The position numbers and the translations under genes were made by a program. From sequence record MT932213.1: a DNA stretch of 64,000 bases, one strand, 5' to 3'. Shown piece by piece: positions 6,933-49,473 of this stretch. Position 1 is the stretch's first letter. Each line of letters begins with the position of its first letter. The notes under the pieces are model-generated. The model was not told the origin of the DNA. It did no database searches and saw only the letters and a program-made list of their open reading frames with translations. This stretch comes from Escherichia phage VEc74.

Positions 6933-8216
6933 ATGGCTAAAATCAACGAACTTCTGCGCGAATCAACCACAACGAATAGCAACTCAATCGGTCGCCCAAA
7001 TCTCGTTGCTTTGACTCGCGCTACCACTAAATTAATATATTCTGACATTGTAGCAACACAAAGAACTAATCAACCTGTTGCTGCTTTTTATGGTATCAAA
7101 TACCTTAACCCAGACAATGAATTTACATTTAAAACTGGTGCTACTTACGCTGGCGAAGCTGGATATGTAGACCGAGAACAAATCACAGAATTAACAGAAG
7201 AGTCTAAATTAACTCTCAATAAAGGCGATTTATTCAAATATAATAATATCGTTTATAAAGTATTAGAAGATACTCCATTTGCTGATATTGAAGAAAGCGA
7301 CTTAGAGTTAGCTCTTCAGATTGCAATTGTTCTTTTAAAGGTTCGTCTATTTTCTGATGCAGCATCAACAAGTAAATTTGAAAGCTCCGATAGCGAAATT
7401 GCGGATGCTAGATTCCAGATTAATAAATGGCAAACCGCAGTTAAATCTCGCAAACTTAAAACTGGTATCACAGTTGAATTAGCACAAGATTTAGAAGCAA
7501 ATGGATTCGATGCTCCTAATTTCTTGGAAGATTTGCTTGCAACTGAAATGGCAGATGAAATTAATAAAGATATTCTGCAGTCTTTGATTACAGTGTCAAA
7601 ACGCTATAAAGTTACAGGAATTACTGATAGTGGATTCATCGATTTGAGTTATGCATCTGCTCCTGAAGCTGGTCGTTCATTATACCGAATGGTATGTGAA
7701 ATGGTTTCGCATATCCAAAAAGAATCAACTTATACAGCAACGTTCTGTGTTGCTTCAGCTCGTGCTGCTGCGATTCTTGCTGCATCAGGTTGGTTAAAAC
7801 ATAAACCAGAAGATGATAAATATCTTTCACAAAATGCCTACGGGTTCTTAGCTAATGGTTTACCGCTTTATTGCGATACTAACAGCCCATTAGATTATGT
7901 AATCGTTGGCGTAGTAGAAAATATCGGTGAAAAAGAAATTGTTGGATCAATTTTCTATGCGCCATATACAGAAGGTCTCGACTTAGATGACCCTGAACAT
8001 GTAGGTGCATTTAAAGTTGTTGTTGACCCAGAAAGCTTACAACCGTCTATCGGTTTATTAGTTAGATATGCTTTATCAGCAAATCCTTATACCGTAGCAA
8101 AAGATGAAAAAGAAGCAAGAATAATTGACGGTGGAGACATGGATAAAATGGCGGGTCGTTCAGATTTGTCTGTTTTATTAGGTGTTAAATTACCAAAAAT
8201 TATTATCGATGAATAA
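6933..8216 (+). CDS. 24: Capsid vertex protein gp24
   Basis: 427 aa, gp23 paralog, T4 gp24 size; late promoter TATAAATA upstream. Confidence 0.95.
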   Translation: MAKINELLRESTTTNSNSIGRPNLVALTRATTKLIYSDIVATQRTNQPVAAFYGIKYLNPDNEFTFKTGATYAGEAGYVDREQITELTEESKLTLNKGDLFKYNNIVYKVLEDTPFADIEESDLELALQIAIVLLKVRLFSDAASTSKFESSDSEIADARFQINKWQTAVKSRKLKTGITVELAQDLEANGFDAPNFLEDLLATEMADEINKDILQSLITVSKRYKVTGITDSGFIDLSYASAPEAGRSLYRMVCEMVSHIQKESTYTATFCVASARAAAILAASGWLKHKPEDDKYLSQNAYGFLANGLPLYCDTNSPLDYVIVGVVENIGEKEIVGSIFYAPYTEGLDLDDPEHVGAFKVVVDPESLQPSIGLLVRYALSANPYTVAKDEKEARIIDGGDMDKMAGRSDLSVLLGVKLPKIIIDE

Positions 8217-35610: not shown

Positions 35611-35672
35611 TTCAATTTCCTCATTTGTTTTGGTAGAGCTATAATATCACAACTCTACCGTAAAGTAAACCA

Positions 35673-44327: not shown

Positions 44328-45188
44328 TTATACCGCCATCTTTCCTTTAATTGGCGGGTGAGATACATAGTTGTTAAGAACGAAATCTTTAGGTCTAAGT
44401 TTAAGAACATATTTTAATTGTTCTTTAGTAGAAAGATATCGGAATTTATAAGGTAGACCACTTATTACCAGCTCACAAAGCTCTTTAGGTTCACGCCTCA
44501 AAATTTCTTTACACTGTTCTACGTGATTCATATAGATATGAGTATTACCACCAGAAAATATCAAATCTCCTGGAATAAGATTACACATCTTAGCTACAAT
44601 ATGAACTAACGTAGCATATGATGCAATATTAAATGGAAGACCGAGAAAAACATCTACCGAACGTTGATACCACTGCAAATCCAAATAGCCATTACGCACA
44701 TTAAACTGATAGAACATATGACAAGGCGGTAATGCCATATATTTAAGTTCAGCTGGATTCCATGCTGAAACAATTTGACGCCTATCATTTGGCAGTTTTT
44801 TAATACGATCAACAACTTCTATAATTTGGTCTACACCACCAAAATCACGCCACTGTTTTCCATAAATTGGACCAAGTTCACCGCTATGATACCCTAAATC
44901 TTTTGCCTGATTTTCGTAATTTTCATCCCAAACTGTTTTGCCTTGGATTAACGAATCGTGTTGAATTAATCGTAAATCATTGACATTTGTGCTTCCCGAT
45001 AAAAACCATATTAGCTCAGCGATGCAAGCTTTCCAAGCGAGTTTCTTAGTCGTTACTGCAGGAAAACCTTTAGTTAAATCCCAGCGTAATTTAGTACCGA
45101 ACAAAGCAATTGTTCCTGTGCCTGTTCGGTCATCGGTTTCATAGCCATTTTCAAAAATGTCTTTAATTAAATCTTGGTATTGTTTCAT
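44328..45188 (-). CDS. td: Thymidylate synthase (uninterrupted, no intron)
   Basis: Continuous 286-aa ORF MKQYQDLIKDIFENGYETDDRTGTGTIALFG... with catalytic PPCH motif. Confidence 0.96.
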   Translation of the reverse strand: MKQYQDLIKDIFENGYETDDRTGTGTIALFGTKLRWDLTKGFPAVTTKKLAWKACIAELIWFLSGSTNVNDLRLIQHDSLIQGKTVWDENYENQAKDLGYHSGELGPIYGKQWRDFGGVDQIIEVVDRIKKLPNDRRQIVSAWNPAELKYMALPPCHMFYQFNVRNGYLDLQWYQRSVDVFLGLPFNIASYATLVHIVAKMCNLIPGDLIFSGGNTHIYMNHVEQCKEILRREPKELCELVISGLPYKFRYLSTKEQLKYVLKLRPKDFVLNNYVSHPPIKGKMAV

Positions 45189-45233: not shown

Positions 45234-45593
45234 TCAATACGGTTTAGCATCAAATTTTCTTTCGATTTCAGGAGTGAAATATAATTCTTTACCGCGTTTA
45301 GAAAAGCGACCAATAATATGATAATTATTCTCATCAAACGTAATATTGCCAATATCCATGGCTTTCAACCAAATATCGATATTTCTATCCAGTTTTATAT
45401 CAAAATTCCAATACGGAGAACTATTACCGAAAATACTGCAAGCGGATTCAGTGAAACAACTACTATAAATCTTGTCTTTAGGAACTACTAATTGATAGAC
45501 GCCTTTAATAAACTGAGGACCCTGCCATTTAGGTTGTTTCGCGTCTTTTTCTAATAGAATAGGGTAATAATTAAAATTCATATTTTCCGCCAC
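45234..45593 (-). CDS. Hypothetical protein encoded by an insertion between frd and td
   Basis: 115-119 aa ORF (GTG at 45593 or ATG at 45581); no recognisable motif; lies inside a ~408-bp segment flanked by 9-bp direct repeats. Confidence 0.55.
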   Translation of the reverse strand: MAENMNFNYYPILLEKDAKQPKWQGPQFIKGVYQLVVPKDKIYSSCFTESACSIFGNSSPYWNFDIKLDRNIDIWLKAMDIGNITFDENNYHIIGRFSKRGKELYFTPEIERKFDAKPY

Positions 45594-45599
45594 GTGTTA

Positions 45600-46428
<829 letters not shown>

Positions 46429-46438
46429 ATTATTTTCC

Positions 46439-46681
46439 TTAAACAGACTTTTTCACAATTTTCCAATCAGCTTTAAACTGCTCGACGTCAGAATGGTAAA
46501 TCCAGAATCCTGCGCTTTCTCCGTCTTCATAAAGAGGACATCCATCACATTCATCTTCCCACCCCATGTCACGTAAAAGATGTTCAGCTTTTTCAACAAG
46601 TTCAGAATCTTTACCGATGATATTAAAATACCATTTACCTCTAACTTCCGAATCTTTGATGCTATGGCGTTGTAATCTCAT
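46439..46681 (-). CDS. frd.2: Hypothetical protein frd.2
   Basis: 80-aa ORF with early promoter upstream. Confidence 0.55.
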   Translation of the reverse strand: MRLQRHSIKDSEVRGKWYFNIIGKDSELVEKAEHLLRDMGWEDECDGCPLYEDGESAGFWIYHSDVEQFKADWKIVKKSV

Positions 46682-46707
46682 TTTATTCTCCTCAAGTTGA
46701 TAAGGCT

Positions 46708-46737
46708 ATAGTATCATTACAATAGCCTGTTGTAAAC
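46708..46737 (-). promoter_or_regulatory. T4 early promoter (GTTTACA-N17-TACTAT) with overlapping stem-loop, upstream of frd.2
   Basis: Minus strand GTTTACAACAGGCTATTGTAATGATACTAT; inverted repeat AGGCTAT...ATAGCCT spans the spacer/-10. Confidence 0.55.
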
Positions 46738-46739
46738 AT

Positions 46740-46967
46740 TTATTTTTGAATTAAGCCCATATAAAATTTAGCATCTTCAGGATACATGCCATCACAATAC
46801 TCATTGGTCATAAAACTGATAAGGTCTTCAAGAGGACCTTGGACTTCAATTTGAATACTAAAGAATTGGGTATCTTTAATGTAAGCCATACTCAAAGAAG
46901 GATAACGATTGCGGATAACTTCATAAGTGTATTCAAAATCAACAATATCAATATTAACCTTAGCCAT
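46740..46967 (-). CDS. Small hypothetical protein, paralog A (frd.3-like)
   Basis: ~75 aa from [13 protein letters not shown]...; SD GAGGAAAA; early promoter upstream; paralogous to 47436..47666. Confidence 0.55.
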
Positions 46968-46996
46968 TTTATTTTCCTCATGTAGTTGATAGGGTA

Positions 46997-47026
46997 ATAG
47001 TATCACACTATTACCATGATGTAAAC
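46997..47026 (-). promoter_or_regulatory. T4 early promoter (GTTTACA-N17-TACTAT) with stem-loop, upstream of paralog A
   Basis: Minus strand GTTTACATCATGGTAATAGTGTGATACTAT; inverted repeat GGTAATAG...CTATTACC. Confidence 0.55.
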
Positions 47027-47391
47027 TACTTTTTGAAAGTTTTTCGCAAAAGTTCAATGATTTCATCTACATTGTTTTCGTCTACAATGCAGTGAATTTT
47101 TGTTACGCCAGAAACTGTGTCTTCGGCTCCATCTTCTTCAGAAGTCGGTTCTTTATACTCGCGAAAACAATGAAATTCGTCTTCACAAACGTTAAAGTAA
47201 AAATGCTTTCCATTTGCGCATTCAATGTGTTTTATTACTCTAAATCCATCAACAAAGAAAGCTTCTTTAACTTCAAACCATCCACCATTTTCTTGAATAA
47301 TTTTAACTATTGATGAATTAGAACGTGGGCGATAATTAATAAATGTATCAATAAGTCTTGGAACAAGCTCATACTTTTTGCCAATATACAT
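47026..47391 (-). CDS. Hypothetical protein
   Basis: 121-aa ORF between the two paralogs. Confidence 0.5.
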
Positions 47392-47435
47392 TACGTTTTC
47401 CTCATTTTAACGGGGCTGTAATAGCCCCTTGATAA

Positions 47436-47666
47436 TTATTGTTCAATCAATCCCATGTAAAATTCTGCGTCTTCAGAATCCATACCATCACAATATTCAT
47501 TAGCCATAAAGCGGGTGAGGTCTTCAAGAGGACCTTCAATGACAATAGAAAAATTGCAATAATTGGGATCATCGTGAATACTTGTGATACTAAGTTCAGG
47601 ATAACGATTACGAATAATCTCTTCAATATATTCAAAATCAACGATGTCAATATCAACTTTAGCCAT
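47436..47666 (-). CDS. Small hypothetical protein, paralog B
   Basis: ~76 aa from [13 protein letters not shown]...; SD GAGGAAAA; early promoter upstream. Confidence 0.55.
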
Positions 47667-47709
47667 ATTATTTTCCTCTTTAATCATCAGCAGTATTGCC
47701 GATAGTTGT

Positions 47710-47739
47710 ATAGTACCACAGCATGCTTTGGTTGTAAAC
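47710..47739 (-). promoter_or_regulatory. T4 early promoter (GTTTACA-N17-TACTAT) upstream of paralog B
   Basis: Minus strand GTTTACAACCAAAGCATGCTGTGGTACTAT. Confidence 0.55.
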
Positions 47740-47769
47740 CGTTTTGTGAAAAAATTTTTGAAATAAAAA

Positions 47770-47788
47770 AGGGGACCTCTAGGGTCCC
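47770..47788 (-). terminator. Hairpin GGGGACC-loop-GGUCCCC plus U-tract downstream of gene 32
   Basis: Perfect 7-bp stem; A-run on forward strand equals T-run on minus strand after the stem. Confidence 0.7.
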
Positions 47789-47811
47789 CAATTAATTAGT
47801 AATATAATCTA

Positions 47812-48720
47812 TTAAAGGTCATTCAAAAGGTCATCCAGGTCCGTGTCATCAGCACTAGATGAACTGCCAGAGCTTGAGCTCATAAAATCATCTTCAGTTT
47901 TTGTTTTGAAGTCATCAACATTGAATGCATCCAAATCATCAGCAACTTTATCAGCTTTCTTAGCGGCAGTTGCTGCGGCACCACCCATAGCAGCAGTTCC
48001 CATAACTTGACTGAACTTAGTGCTCAGTTCTTCAAACGATTTGAATTTATCTTTAGAAGTCATTTCAGAAAGGTCAACCATTTGTTCGAACAGTTCTTTC
48101 TGGAAAGATTCATCATCAATGTTTGGAATCGCAGATTGATTCAGGAATTTAGATTCATCGTAGTTACTAAAACCAGAAACTTGTTTAACTTTCAGTACAA
48201 AGTTAGCACCTTCCCACGGACAAGTTACATCAACTGGAGTTTCACCCATTTCAACATCAACCGCAATCATTGCATTGATTTTATCCCAGATTTTCTTACC
48301 GAAACGGTATTTAAATACTTTACCTTCGTTTTCTGGAGCAGCTGGGTCTTTTACAACAAGAATATTAGCCCAGTAAGAAGTTTTACGTTTAACAAGACTG
48401 TACTCTTTATTGTCAGTGTTGTACAGATCATTTTTACTAATGTATTGACATACTGGGCAAGAATCGTAATCACCGTGGGTAGATGAACAATTTTCGATAT
48501 ACCATTTACCGTTTTTCTTGAAACCGTGATTTACAAGAATTGCGAATGGTGCTTGTTCATCATTTTTAGACGGAAGAAAACGAATTACTGCTTGACCGTT
48601 ACCCGCATTGTCGAGTTTCAGTTTCCACTCGCCTTTATCTTCAGAAGAAAAACCACCTTTATTTCCAGCCAGTTTAGCCATTTGTGCAGCGAGTTCAGCA
48701 GTAGATTTACGTTTAAACAT
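47812..48720 (-). CDS. 32: Single-stranded DNA-binding protein gp32
   Basis: 302-aa [55 protein letters not shown]... matches T4 gp32. Confidence 0.97.
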
Positions 48721-48790
48721 TTTTATTTCCTTTTTAATTTAATTAACAGTTGGTGCTATGACGATGTATGACCTCATAGCTGGTCAGTGA
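48721..48790 (-). promoter_or_regulatory. Gene 32 mRNA leader / translational operator (autogenous repression site)
   Basis: Minus-strand leader ends UUAAUUAAAUUAAAAAGGAAAUAAAA-AUG, the unstructured A/U-rich operator known for T4 gene 32. Confidence 0.65.
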
Positions 48791-48819
48791 GATAATTATA
48801 ATCTATTTATAATAAGCAA

Positions 48820-49473
48820 TTAATACTTGCAAGATTTCACAGTTTCAATGAAAACATTTTTAGCTTTCTGTGAATCAATATTTAAAATTTTTCTATAAGC
48901 CTTTAACTTTATAGAATAATTATTCCAGACTAAATTATCAGTCTGTTCATCATGTTTATCAATTATATTTAAAAATGAATCAAGCAAGATAAACGTCTCA
49001 AACGAAATTATGTTCGATTGCAGAAGTTTAAAAATATAACTTGATTGAACTTTTGGATTATACTCAAAAATTTCTTTAAAAGCAGAAACTTCAACTTTTT
49101 TACTAAAATAATAAATGTTGCGAATATCTTCTTCAAACTTAAATTTAATTTGCTTTAAGCGTCCGATATATTCACGATAAAACACAAGTGCATCAGCGTC
49201 AGAGATGTCACCAATCCAAGCATCTTGGTTAGCAACAAGATTGCTTATAAAGATTAAAGCAAGTTCCTTTAATTTATATTTTTCTGATAACTTCTGGAAA
49301 AAATACTTATCCCTTCGCTTTTGATAAGCGGCATCAGACACCCGCATGCACCAATTATACTTAATTACATCATACTTTCCATTCATATGTTGTTTTATCA
49401 TTAAGTATAATTTATAAACTGATTTACCATCAATGTATCTTTCACCACCAGCAGGCATGCGGAGTTTAATCAT
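48820..49473 (-). CDS. 59: Helicase loader gp59
   Basis: 217 aa, T4 size and synteny. Confidence 0.9.
   Translation of the reverse strand: MIKLRMPAGGERYIDGKSVYKLYLMIKQHMNGKYDVIKYNWCMRVSDAAYQKRRDKYFFQKLSEKYKLKELALIFISNLVANQDAWIGDISDADALVFYREYIGRLKQIKFKFEEDIRNIYYFSKKVEVSAFKEIFEYNPKVQSSYIFKLLQSNIISFETFILLDSFLNIIDKHDEQTDNLVWNNYSIKLKAYRKILNIDSQKAKNVFIETVKSCKY

Follow-up and report, generated by a model that had tools for sequence, protein, structure and literature searches.

The frd interval and its early promoters

The window, i.e. the whole 64,000-nucleotide stretch of DNA that was analysed, comes from a Tequatrovirus (T4-like phage) and contains the hyperplastic td-frd-32 interval. The following features were delineated there, all on the minus strand:

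47771..47789, minus strand: intrinsic terminator hairpin (GGGGACC CUAGA GGUCCCC plus a U tract) after gene 32, ~30 nt upstream of P1; terminator scan; RNA fold -14.3 kcal/mol, z = -2.09
47710..47739, minus strand: P1, upstream of frd.3a: putative early promoter of T4 type (GTTTACA-N17-TACTAT plus TGn) whose spacer forms an imperfect palindrome
47436..47666, minus strand: frd.3a, 76 aa (PF05798, E = 6e-38), in the Tequatrovirus position adjoining gene 32
47412..47428, minus strand: GGGGCU-loop-AGCCCC hairpin in the frd.3a/frd.2 gap (-11.4 kcal/mol, z = -2.04), with neither promoter nor U tract
47026..47391, minus strand: frd.2, 121 aa (PF03197, E = 3e-32), unrelated to Frd.3 and probably co-transcribed from P1
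46997..47026, minus strand: P2, putative early promoter overlapping the frd.2 stop codon; its -35 to -10 part is T4-like
46690..46990, minus strand: probably imported module of ~300 bp (leader with Shine-Dalgarno sequence, frd.3b, P3), delimited in a four-way alignment of the window, VR7, EH2 and T4
46740..46967, minus strand: frd.3b, 75 aa (PF05798, E = 5e-36), a Dhakavirus/Gaprivervirus-type copy of frd.3
46708..46737, minus strand: P3, putative early promoter of donor type, upstream of frd.1
46439..46681, minus strand: frd.1, 80 aa (DUF5417; PF17438, E = 3e-33), T4-like (97.5%), the gene that P3 probably drives

Compared with T4, frd.3a, frd.2 and frd.1 are 91-97.5% identical at the nucleotide level to the T4 genes, and P1 and P2 have direct T4 counterparts, but T4 carries a single frd.3 and has a 22-aa hydrophobic ORF where the window has frd.3b and P3. 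Also missing from T4 are two ORFs of 81 and 119 aa that are present in the window.

Three minus-strand promoters sharing one motif had been described here by an earlier note, and a scan of the 64-kb window indeed gave three exact GTTTACA-N17-TACTAT matches, each on the minus strand, against 0.01 expected from dinucleotide shuffles (0 of 100 shuffles reached three sites). Each of the three has a TGn extended -10 element and an A/T-rich upstream tract, and they share the UP/-35/TGn/-10 class of T4 early promoters (NC_000866 annotation; Hinton 2010 review, PMC2988021). Judging from this identity with T4 early promoters, P1, P2 and P3 are probably active. The further claim that the three drive the paralogous pair holds in part: P1 lies before frd.3a and P2 before frd.3b, but P3 would drive the non-paralogous frd.1. 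No early promoter belongs to frd.2 itself; this gene comes after frd.3a, past the GGGGCU/AGCCCC hairpin, and would thus be read from P1. Directly next to the -35 elements of P2 and P3 lie the stop codons of frd.2 and frd.3b, respectively. Over 55 nt, P2 and P3 are only 71% alike; the P1 spacer exists in at least four unrelated alleles among relatives, three of them palindromic; a P3-type promoter also occurs in VR7, QL01 and AnYang; and the frd.1 promoter of EH2 is a P3/P2 hybrid.

Two of the three promoters had been said to carry an inverted repeat, which was borne out by folding. The P2 repeat (GGTAATAGT/ACTATTACC, 46993-47015, -10.3 kcal/mol) spans the spacer and the -10 element, and that of P3 (AGGCTAT../..ATAGCCT, 46703-46728, -10.4 kcal/mol) overlaps the -10 element. 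Both stems are more stable than shuffles of their own spacer plus downstream sequence (P2, p = 0.013; P3, p = 0.008), with z-scores of -1.73 and -2.80, respectively, against dinucleotide shuffles, and a fold as good as that of P2 is reached by only 1.4% of 35-mers drawn at random from the genome. P1 was rejected as a stem-loop promoter of the P2/P3 kind, its imperfect palindrome being no better than shuffles (p = 0.20, z = +0.45). Of 18 early promoters that fit the strict motif in the window and T4 1-50 kb together, 6 have hairpins at p ≤ 0.05 (binomial P = 1.7e-4); the remaining 12 have none and the stem is thus not universal. In QL01 and AnYang, the stem is no longer present in the orthologous frd.3 promoter (-1 kcal/mol), indicating that these phages can dispense with it. 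Lacking U tracts, the hairpins of P2 and P3 are not canonical intrinsic terminators. Since they lie upstream of their own start sites, they would appear only in read-through RNA from an upstream promoter, and they most likely serve as attenuators or 3'-end stabilisers that insulate neighbouring modules.

Two other RNA signals in the region were dismissed. An intragenic AAGGUC...GACCUU "terminator-like" match in frd.3b encodes the invariant GPLEDL, and a synonymous change breaks the stem in VR7. An Rfam scan of positions 46000-49000 at E ≤ 1 returned only a chance snoRNA-like match (21.7 bits versus a cut-off of 42).

The Frd.3 pair and Frd.2

The two small proteins, described by the earlier note as paralogs of ~75 aa and roughly 60% identity, proved to be 76 and 75 aa long and identical at 48 of 76 residues (63%, E = 2e-34). 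Both belong to the Pfam family Phage_FRD3 (PF05798) and cover profile positions 1-75 of 75, with 129.6 bits for copy a and 123.4 bits for copy b against a cut-off of 28.1. At the DNA level, the genes are 72% identical overall and contain direct repeats of 101 nt (82%) and 92 nt (80%) at a spacing of 696-699 nt. The shared Shine-Dalgarno sequence, GAGGAAAA, was confirmed before both copies and also precedes frd.2; the SD-ATG box was found five times (repeat family D3). The 121-aa ORF between the paralogs is Frd.2, as unrelated to Frd.3 as had been stated (Pfam FRD2, PF03197; 111.5 bits versus a gathering score of 29). The literature places Frd.2 in the GoF-MotB.1-Frd.2 family, for which it describes an LSm-like fold with an N-terminal LSm-like beta-barrel (PMC12152347), and in the T4 CRISPRi-ART screen frd.2 is reported to have been alone among genes of unknown function in scoring as 'Fit' (PMC11879866).

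The predicted fold of Frd.3 is a generic ferredoxin-like domain (AF2 model of Frd.3b, pLDDT 94.7). A search with the Frd.3 profile against the PDB gave no match at E ≤ 1, and Foldseek against BFVD recovered only uncharacterised homologs annotated as "8.8 kDa protein in frd-Gp32 intergenic region" from Serratia, Erwinia and Klebsiella strabovirids. Among 1.84 billion representative proteins, the profile found only seven matches, indicating that the family is confined to T4-like phages and that a deeper alignment is not obtainable. A PADLOC scan of Frd.3a, Frd.3b and Frd.2 gave no match, and the PADLOC, PDB and fold searches together yielded no sequence or informative fold match to characterised anti-defence or defence families. 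Nothing positive was found that links Frd.3 to defence.

Diversifying pressure, which the pair had been thought to experience, is unsupported overall: dN/dS is 0.17 between frd.3a and frd.3b and 0.11 between frd.3b and VR7 frd.3, within an overall Frd.3 range of 0.11-0.43. A weak hint towards it comes from a patch of 18 codons (codons 26-43, the beta2-beta3 hairpin) that is hypervariable and mosaic among alleles, with pN of 0.19-0.57 versus 0-0.22 elsewhere in Frd.3.

Origin of the second frd.3 copy

The pair had been read as a local duplication, an interpretation that the comparison with other phages contradicts, because the copies are not each other's closest relatives. Whereas frd.3b shares 72% of its nucleotides with frd.3a, it is 90.7% identical to frd.3 of Gaprivervirus VR7 (dS 0.41), which at 90.7% amino acid identity is also the best GenBank phage match to the Frd.3b protein, and over the module the identity reaches 93% in Dhakavirus records. 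The module at 46690..46990 as a whole is 88-93% identical to 81 Dhakavirus/Gaprivervirus records, all from ~170-kb phages (best identity 92-93%), and to no Tequatrovirus record, whereas gp32, frd.2, frd.1, frd and td of the window are only 48-74% identical to those of VR7, with dS at least 1.5 or saturated. frd.3a is 98.7-99.6% identical to the same gene in EH2 and G4498.

The position of copy b points the same way. T4 and T2 have the order 32 - frd.3 - frd.2 - frd.1, and VR7, NC-G, CLB_P2 and QL01 the order frd.2 - 84/86-aa ORF - frd.3 - frd.1, so that frd.3b occupies the slot upstream of frd.1 where the Dhakavirus/Gaprivervirus frd.3 sits. The frd region of these four phages thus matches the window in its frd.3 allele, leader and frd.1 promoter, in the same slot, but has no frd.3 next to gene 32, carries the extra gene between frd.2 and frd.3, and is flanked by diverged genes throughout. 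Given this affinity, the donor-genus position and the diverged flanks, copy b appears to be an imported allele rather than an in situ duplicate. The best donor match of only ~93% implies that the true donor is unsampled or that the transfer was not very recent. In the alignment of the window, VR7, EH2 and T4, the left junction falls in CCTATCAA (about 46986-46993), between the -10 element of P2 and the Shine-Dalgarno sequence, and the right junction in AGGAGAATAAAATGA (about 46679-46693), the SD-ATG box of frd.1.

T-even phages differ in the gene content and copy number of this interval, so the uniform arrangement that the earlier note named as refuting its reading is not observed, and the frd.2/frd.1 slot takes four states among the phages compared. 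Besides frd.3b, it holds a 22-aa ORF in T4 (T4-type filler at ≥80% coverage in 197 records) or an unrelated 84-aa gene in EH2 (present in 349 records), or is empty, as in T2; T2, T4, EH2 and G4498 all lack copy b and have other content or nothing in the slot. The two-copy layout was found in no GenBank phage record, and copy b in none of about 630 GenBank Tequatrovirus-like records. The layout was present in all 10 metagenome or assembly contigs examined, and the exact Frd.3b protein is encoded on at least 23 contigs. Across the ten contigs, copy b is paired with any of three frd.3a alleles, in genomes that have or lack segG and the td intron, and is 98.2-99.6% conserved, whereas frd.3a ranges from 80 to 99.6%. 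L017, a single short-read contig, carries an a/b chimera, and frd.2 is absent from it.

Taken together, we consider it likely that the frd interval consists of PeSL-type (promoter-early stem-loop) early cassettes and that the second frd.3 was imported from a Dhakavirus/Gaprivervirus-like phage by recombination at promoter/leader boxes. The promoter-gene cassettes recognised by the earlier note are self-contained modules of T4 early type, whose general plan would comprise an A/T-rich tract, a strong sigma-70 early promoter (TTTACA-N17-TGnTACTAT), in many cases with an internal or adjacent hairpin, a GAGGA(A/G)AAUAAAAUG translation start and a small gene; P1 would serve frd.3a and frd.2, P2 frd.3b, and P3 frd.1 plus the genes that follow. 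As near-identical sequences, the promoter and leader boxes may offer short homology patches to the phage recombination system, through which a ~300-bp module consisting of leader, frd.3 and P3 would have been inserted between frd.2 and frd.1 in a Tequatrovirus with a resident frd.3 by gene 32, producing the 'paralogous pair'. The two copies would now act as direct repeats around frd.2, able to recombine and delete it. Crossovers at these boxes would also fit ordinary homologous recombination, because the boxes are the only conserved patches between the diverged genomes, and 'PeSL-mediated' may accordingly denote where exchange is possible rather than a dedicated mechanism.

The spacing of 696-699 nt, the common orientation, the same Shine-Dalgarno sequence and the same promoter type would all suit a tandem duplication of the promoter-frd.3 cassette within this lineage, followed by divergence. 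Such an origin is very improbable and already contradicted: besides the closer kinship of copy b with VR7 and of the module with Dhakavirus/Gaprivervirus records, dS between the copies is saturated at 1.3, P2 and P3 differ as noted above, the P3 travelling with copy b is of donor type, and copy b is missing from T2, T4, EH2 and G4498. A duplication could instead be ancient, having occurred in an ancestor of the Tevenvirinae and been followed by reciprocal loss, so that Tequatroviruses kept the copy on the gene 32 side and Dhaka- and Gapriverviruses the one on the frd.1 side, with this lineage keeping both vertically. The a type always lies by gene 32 and the b type always by frd.1, and they have diverged as far as the genera themselves have (dS about 1.1-1.4), so that the two could be old positional paralogs. 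We regard this scenario as unlikely, however, because the divergence of copy b from VR7 should then match that of the flanking genes, which it falls far short of, and because copy b is nearly invariant across backgrounds whose copy a differs by up to 20% and is missing from the GenBank Tequatrovirus-like records.

Two further explanations concern how the module arrived and whether it is real. SegG is associated with co-conversion of nearby markers in T2/T4, and a break made by a homing endonuclease (SegG near gene 32, or I-TevI in td), followed by co-conversion in a mixed infection, could have started the transfer with the promoters playing no special part. Two-copy genomes differ in whether they have segG (between 59 and 32) and the td intron with I-TevI, both occur in T4, and VR7 has a segG-like gene, 32.1; the window itself contains neither segG nor the td intron with I-TevI. 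This route is improbable as the sole account, since the imported tract is only ~300 bp and a T4-like frd.2 lies between it and gene 32, where a continuous conversion tract would be expected; nor is it exclusive of import at promoter/leader boxes, as resolution would still fall in those patches. Several contigs in support of the layout derive from metagenomes that could contain phages of both genera together, which raises the question of whether the second copy is a chimeric join of Tequatrovirus and Dhakavirus reads. The same junctions were nevertheless found in 10/10 contigs from independent samples and sources, including contigs of 166 and 168 kb and two NCBI assemblies, and both flanks of copy b are Tequatrovirus-like, making an assembly artefact extremely improbable.

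Relation to PeSL cassettes and implications

PeSL cassettes and their shuffling have been described for T4-type phages (Arbiol et al. 2010, PMC2839356; Comeau et al. 2014, PMC4122927). The published PST/T4 PeSL consensus is TTTACW-N17-TAYWAT, with stems between the boxes or overlapping the -10 element, and the three window promoters match it, all with TGn. Stems lie within or over P2 and P3, and the gene 32 terminator hairpin stands just upstream of P1; the upstream stop codon sits in the A/T-rich tract at the 5' end of each cassette, and the Shine-Dalgarno sequence and start codon of the small gene at its 3' end. The region is likewise hyperplastic, with indels and replacements between close relatives that are bounded by promoter/leader boxes, including the EH2 hybrid promoter. 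Mini-circle crossovers were mapped by Arbiol et al. between the -10 element and the SD/ATG (PMC2839356), and the window junctions fall in the same places, from -10 to SD and in the SD-ATG box. There are also differences. The window stems are A/T-rich and variable in sequence, whereas RB49/phi1 stems are of the GGGG...CCCC type; the PST/T4 stems lie just upstream of the promoter (2014 figure legend), whereas those of P2 and P3 lie inside it, as in the RB49/phi1 subclasses; and the window cargo is a second, probably xenologous copy of a resident gene that gave a paralog pair. A further parallel is the internal-protein (IP) locus (Repoila et al. 1994, cited in PMC2839356), at which T-even phages exchange small genes of early or accessory type that have T4 early promoters with weak, A/T-rich stem-loops on their flanks; as far as that citation goes, the frd interval is similar in its swapping of small genes flanked by promoters and stem-loops, but differs in locus and cargo.

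What Frd.3 does can be proposed more tentatively. Conceivably, though we think it rather unlikely, Frd.3 acts as a small, acidic, early-expressed protein whose beta2-beta3 hairpin binds a target of host (or phage) origin and is a surface engaged in an arms race. If so, Tequatroviruses with a second, Dhakavirus-type frd.3 allele would gain a wider target or host range, and the promoter-embedded hairpins would be a device that lets frd.3 alleles be stacked and swapped. Two points lend themselves to testing: the pairing of a hypervariable hairpin with stacked alleles in Frd.3, and the apparent lack of frd.2 from a natural contig.

The frd case is a further instance of a known process and leaves the current understanding of T4 biology unchanged. 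For the T-even group proper, it adds support to the published PeSL shuffling model, at a locus that the portions of the papers considered here do not single out. It also indicates that a phage gene "duplication" can be a stacked import from another genus with both junctions inside promoter/leader boxes, and that the follow-on deletion product, an a/b chimera, is visible in nature, where at least one natural contig appears to lack frd.2, reportedly the one fitness gene of unknown function in a T4 CRISPRi-ART screen.

Gene content of the frd interval

The window derives from a Tequatrovirus (T4-like) genome. A stretch of 1.45 kb around the feature matches 628 phage records, mostly Escherichia/Shigella T-even phages, at 80-97% identity, with coverage of this stretch at ≤85% in every one of them. 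The minus-strand order is 59, 32, frd.3a, frd.2, frd.3b, frd.1, an 81-aa ORF, frd, a 119-aa ORF and td.

Features of the frd interval in the window and, in the last line, in T4
47812-48720, minus, gene 32
47436-47666, minus, frd.3a (copy a, near gene 32)
47026-47391, minus, frd.2, with an FRD2 Pfam match
46740-46967, minus, frd.3b (copy b, near frd.1)
46439-46681, minus, frd.1/DUF5417
46183-46428, minus, 81-aa ORF (phrog_3183) between frd and frd.1
45234-45593, minus, 119-aa ORF between td and frd, no Pfam match
3016-3084 of L004 (NC_000866), minus, T4 22-aa ORF between frd.1 and frd.2 (T4 145,015-146,083 region)

The td-frd and frd-frd.1 gaps are two more variable slots of the same interval: in T4, td and frd overlap, whereas the window has the 119-aa ORF between them, and T4 lacks the 81-aa ORF, which is present, unannotated, in T2 record AY310907. 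Unlike T4, the window has an uninterrupted td (44328-45188, 286 aa) without the I-TevI intron, and it lacks segG in the 32-59 gap (48720-48820).

Origin and distribution of the second frd.3 copy

Frd.3a and Frd.3b are 63% identical and each gives a full-length Pfam Phage_FRD3 match, which bears out the paralogous pair described in the earlier note; copy number does vary, with one frd.3 in T4 and T2 and two in the window. The same note had explained the pair by local duplication and suggested a host-takeover or anti-defence role under diversifying pressure; it was wrong on the origin, and the analysis lends an anti-defence role no support. Among 50,697 GenBank phage records, the best match to copy b was frd.3 of Gaprivervirus VR7 (90.7% aa identity), and the ~300-bp module comprising a leader, frd.3b and the promoter P3 gave 81 near-matches (88-93% identity), all in ~170-kb Dhakavirus/Gaprivervirus phages and none in a Tequatrovirus. 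Gene order in these genera is 32 - frd.2 - (84/86-aa ORF) - frd.3 - frd.1, as against 32 - frd.3 - frd.2 - frd.1 in T4 and T2, so that their frd.3 occupies the position of copy b in the window. Copies a and b are separated by a dS of 1.3, a depth equal to that between T4 frd.3 and VR7 frd.3, and their dN/dS of 0.17 lends no support to overall diversifying selection.

An ancient frd.3 pair kept by plain vertical descent is argued against by the neighbouring genes: copy b lies at a dS of only 0.41 from VR7 frd.3, whereas gp32, frd.2, frd.1, frd and td share 48-74% nt identity with VR7, at dS ≥1.5 or saturated. This contrast with the flanks, together with the VR7 affinity of copy b, the dS between a and b and the donor-genus position, rules out recent in situ duplication. 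Judged from these sequence comparisons, copy b is most probably an import from a Dhaka/Gaprivervirus-like lineage.

The exact copy b protein was found on at least 23 contigs (metagenomes, SRA assemblies and two NCBI assemblies), with the two-copy layout in 10/10 contigs examined. Copy b varies little between the two-copy contigs (98.2-99.6% conserved). Copy a comes in three allele classes there (80-99.6% nt), and the contigs differ in whether they carry segG, the I-TevI td intron and DUF7247. One Logan contig (L017, SRR29999948, 2501-2749) has the order 32 - Frd.3 - frd.1 and appears to lack frd.2; its Frd.3 is a chimera, a-type to TRFM and b-type thereafter, with the crossover at TTTATG within the two frd.3 copies. 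Recombination between the two copies would be expected to yield this product, seen here in a single short-read contig.

The frd.2-frd.1 slot and the Frd proteins

The slot between frd.2 and frd.1 is a variable site. It is empty in T2, holds the T4-type 22-aa filler in about 197 phage records and carries an unrelated 84-aa gene in EH2-type genomes (EH2, L001, 950-1204); the gene itself occurs in 349 records. The frd.1 promoter of EH2 combines a P3-like 5' part with a P2-like stem and leader in a hybrid. The T4 filler is an unannotated hydrophobic ORF, MFAPYIMAAVMLVCLYLLIKAC, with its own start, GGAGAAAAGAAAATG, behind a P2-type early promoter. The 84-aa gene, common to EH2-type Tequatroviruses and Dhaka/Gapriverviruses, was found by tblastn at 40% identity in ~50-kb Klebsiella phages (KOX1, IMGroot) and more weakly in a Pantoea phage, and appears to be widely mobile cargo. 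In Dhakavirus AnYang (L021, MK234886, 389-992) a ssDNA-binding protein gene is annotated directly upstream of frd.3, and neither frd.2 nor the 86-aa ORF was found in the 1-kb stretch examined; this layout may be a further arrangement of the interval or an annotation problem.

The Frd.3 model is a beta-alpha-beta-beta-alpha-alpha ferredoxin-like domain (pLDDT 94.7), for which the structural matches were generic neighbours and uncharacterised strabovirid homologs, with no PDB or PADLOC match; the family had only 7 matches among 1.84 billion representative proteins. Allele differences cluster in the beta2-beta3 hairpin (codons 26-43). For a1 against a2, pS and pN are 0.44 and 0.29 in these codons versus 0.06 and 0 elsewhere, and since both jump, the patch is a mosaic segment; pN/pS near or >1 in some allele pairs is suggestive only, because the patch holds ~10 synonymous sites. 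Otherwise close Tequatroviruses (L006-L015) carry at least three allele classes of frd.3a (47436-47666), differing mainly in this 18-codon patch (residues 26-43). In T4, frd.3 mRNA ranks with the most abundant NAD-capped RNAs of the phage (bioRxiv 10.1101/2024.04.04.588121), consistent with frd.3 being expressed. Frd.2 has been assigned to a family with a predicted LSm-like fold (PMC12152347), and in a CRISPRi-ART screen of T4 frd.2 was the sole gene of unknown function to be scored "Fit" (PMC11879866).

Early promoters, hairpins and module junctions

The exact motif GTTTACA-N17-TACTAT occurs three times in the window (0.01 expected), all within 1.1 kb: P1 (47710-47739), P2 (46997-47026) and P3 (46708-46737). 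Each has a TGn extended -10 and an A/T-rich tract upstream, both features of T4 early promoters (Hinton review, PMC2988021). In P2 and P3 the spacer holds the 5' arm of a hairpin and the 3' arm extends over the -10, with folding energies of about -10.3 to -10.4 kcal/mol. Both are more stable than controls in which each promoter's own spacer and downstream sequence was shuffled (p = 0.013 and 0.008, respectively), and the stability of P2 is reached by only 1.4% of random genomic 35-mers. P1 lies just downstream of the gene 32 terminator hairpin; its own palindrome is imperfect and no better than shuffles. The earlier observation of promoters, hairpins and paralogs is confirmed, with two corrections: P3 is predicted to drive frd.1, not a paralog, and frd.2 lacks a promoter, so that P1 would transcribe it jointly with frd.3a.

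Hairpins at p ≤ 0.05 were found in 6 of the 18 strict-motif early promoters of the window and T4 1-50 kb (binomial P = 1.7e-4), and are thus recurrent but not universal. The orthologous promoters of QL01 and AnYang have lost the hairpin, which would make it dispensable in at least some of them. Given this loss, and stems without U tracts in P2 and P3, an attenuator or insulator role is one that we infer from experiments in RB49/phi1. Stems also bracket the -10 of minus-strand early-promoter-like sites at window positions 35670 (GGTAGAG/CTCTACC, -16.3 kcal/mol, p = 0.001), 31695 (GGTACAGG/CCTGTACC) and 51040 (AGATTT/AAATCT), and comparable stems occur in T4 at 7215 (motB) and 2458. The 17-nt spacer of P1 (47710-47739 compared with L002-L015) has at least four unrelated alleles in close relatives, between identical -35, -10 and flanks; three are palindromic, e.g. 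CATAAAGCTTTATG in T4.

In a four-way alignment with VR7, EH2 and T4, the window is T4-like from frd.2 through the P2 -35, stem and -10, VR7-like from CCTATCAACTACATGAGGAAAATAAAATG through frd.3b and P3, and T4-like again in the frd.1 SD-ATG box. T2-type recipients and donors share identical patches of about 11-24 nt at both module ends. The junctions fall in the same places as the mini-circle crossovers that Arbiol et al. (PMC2839356) report having sequenced, between the -10 and the SD or ATG, for promoter-early stem-loop (PeSL) cassettes of T4-type phages. As described by Arbiol et al. (2010) and Comeau et al. (2014), PeSLs also share the consensus (TTTACW-N17-TAYWAT for PST/T4), stems that lie over the promoter boxes or between them, the location in a hyperplastic region and the architecture, in line with the promoter-gene cassettes proposed in the earlier note. 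The differences are minor: stems here are A/T-rich and variable, as against GGGG/CCCC, and the cargo is a second, xenologous version of a gene that the phage already carries. We read the feature as one more well-resolved case of this published mechanism.
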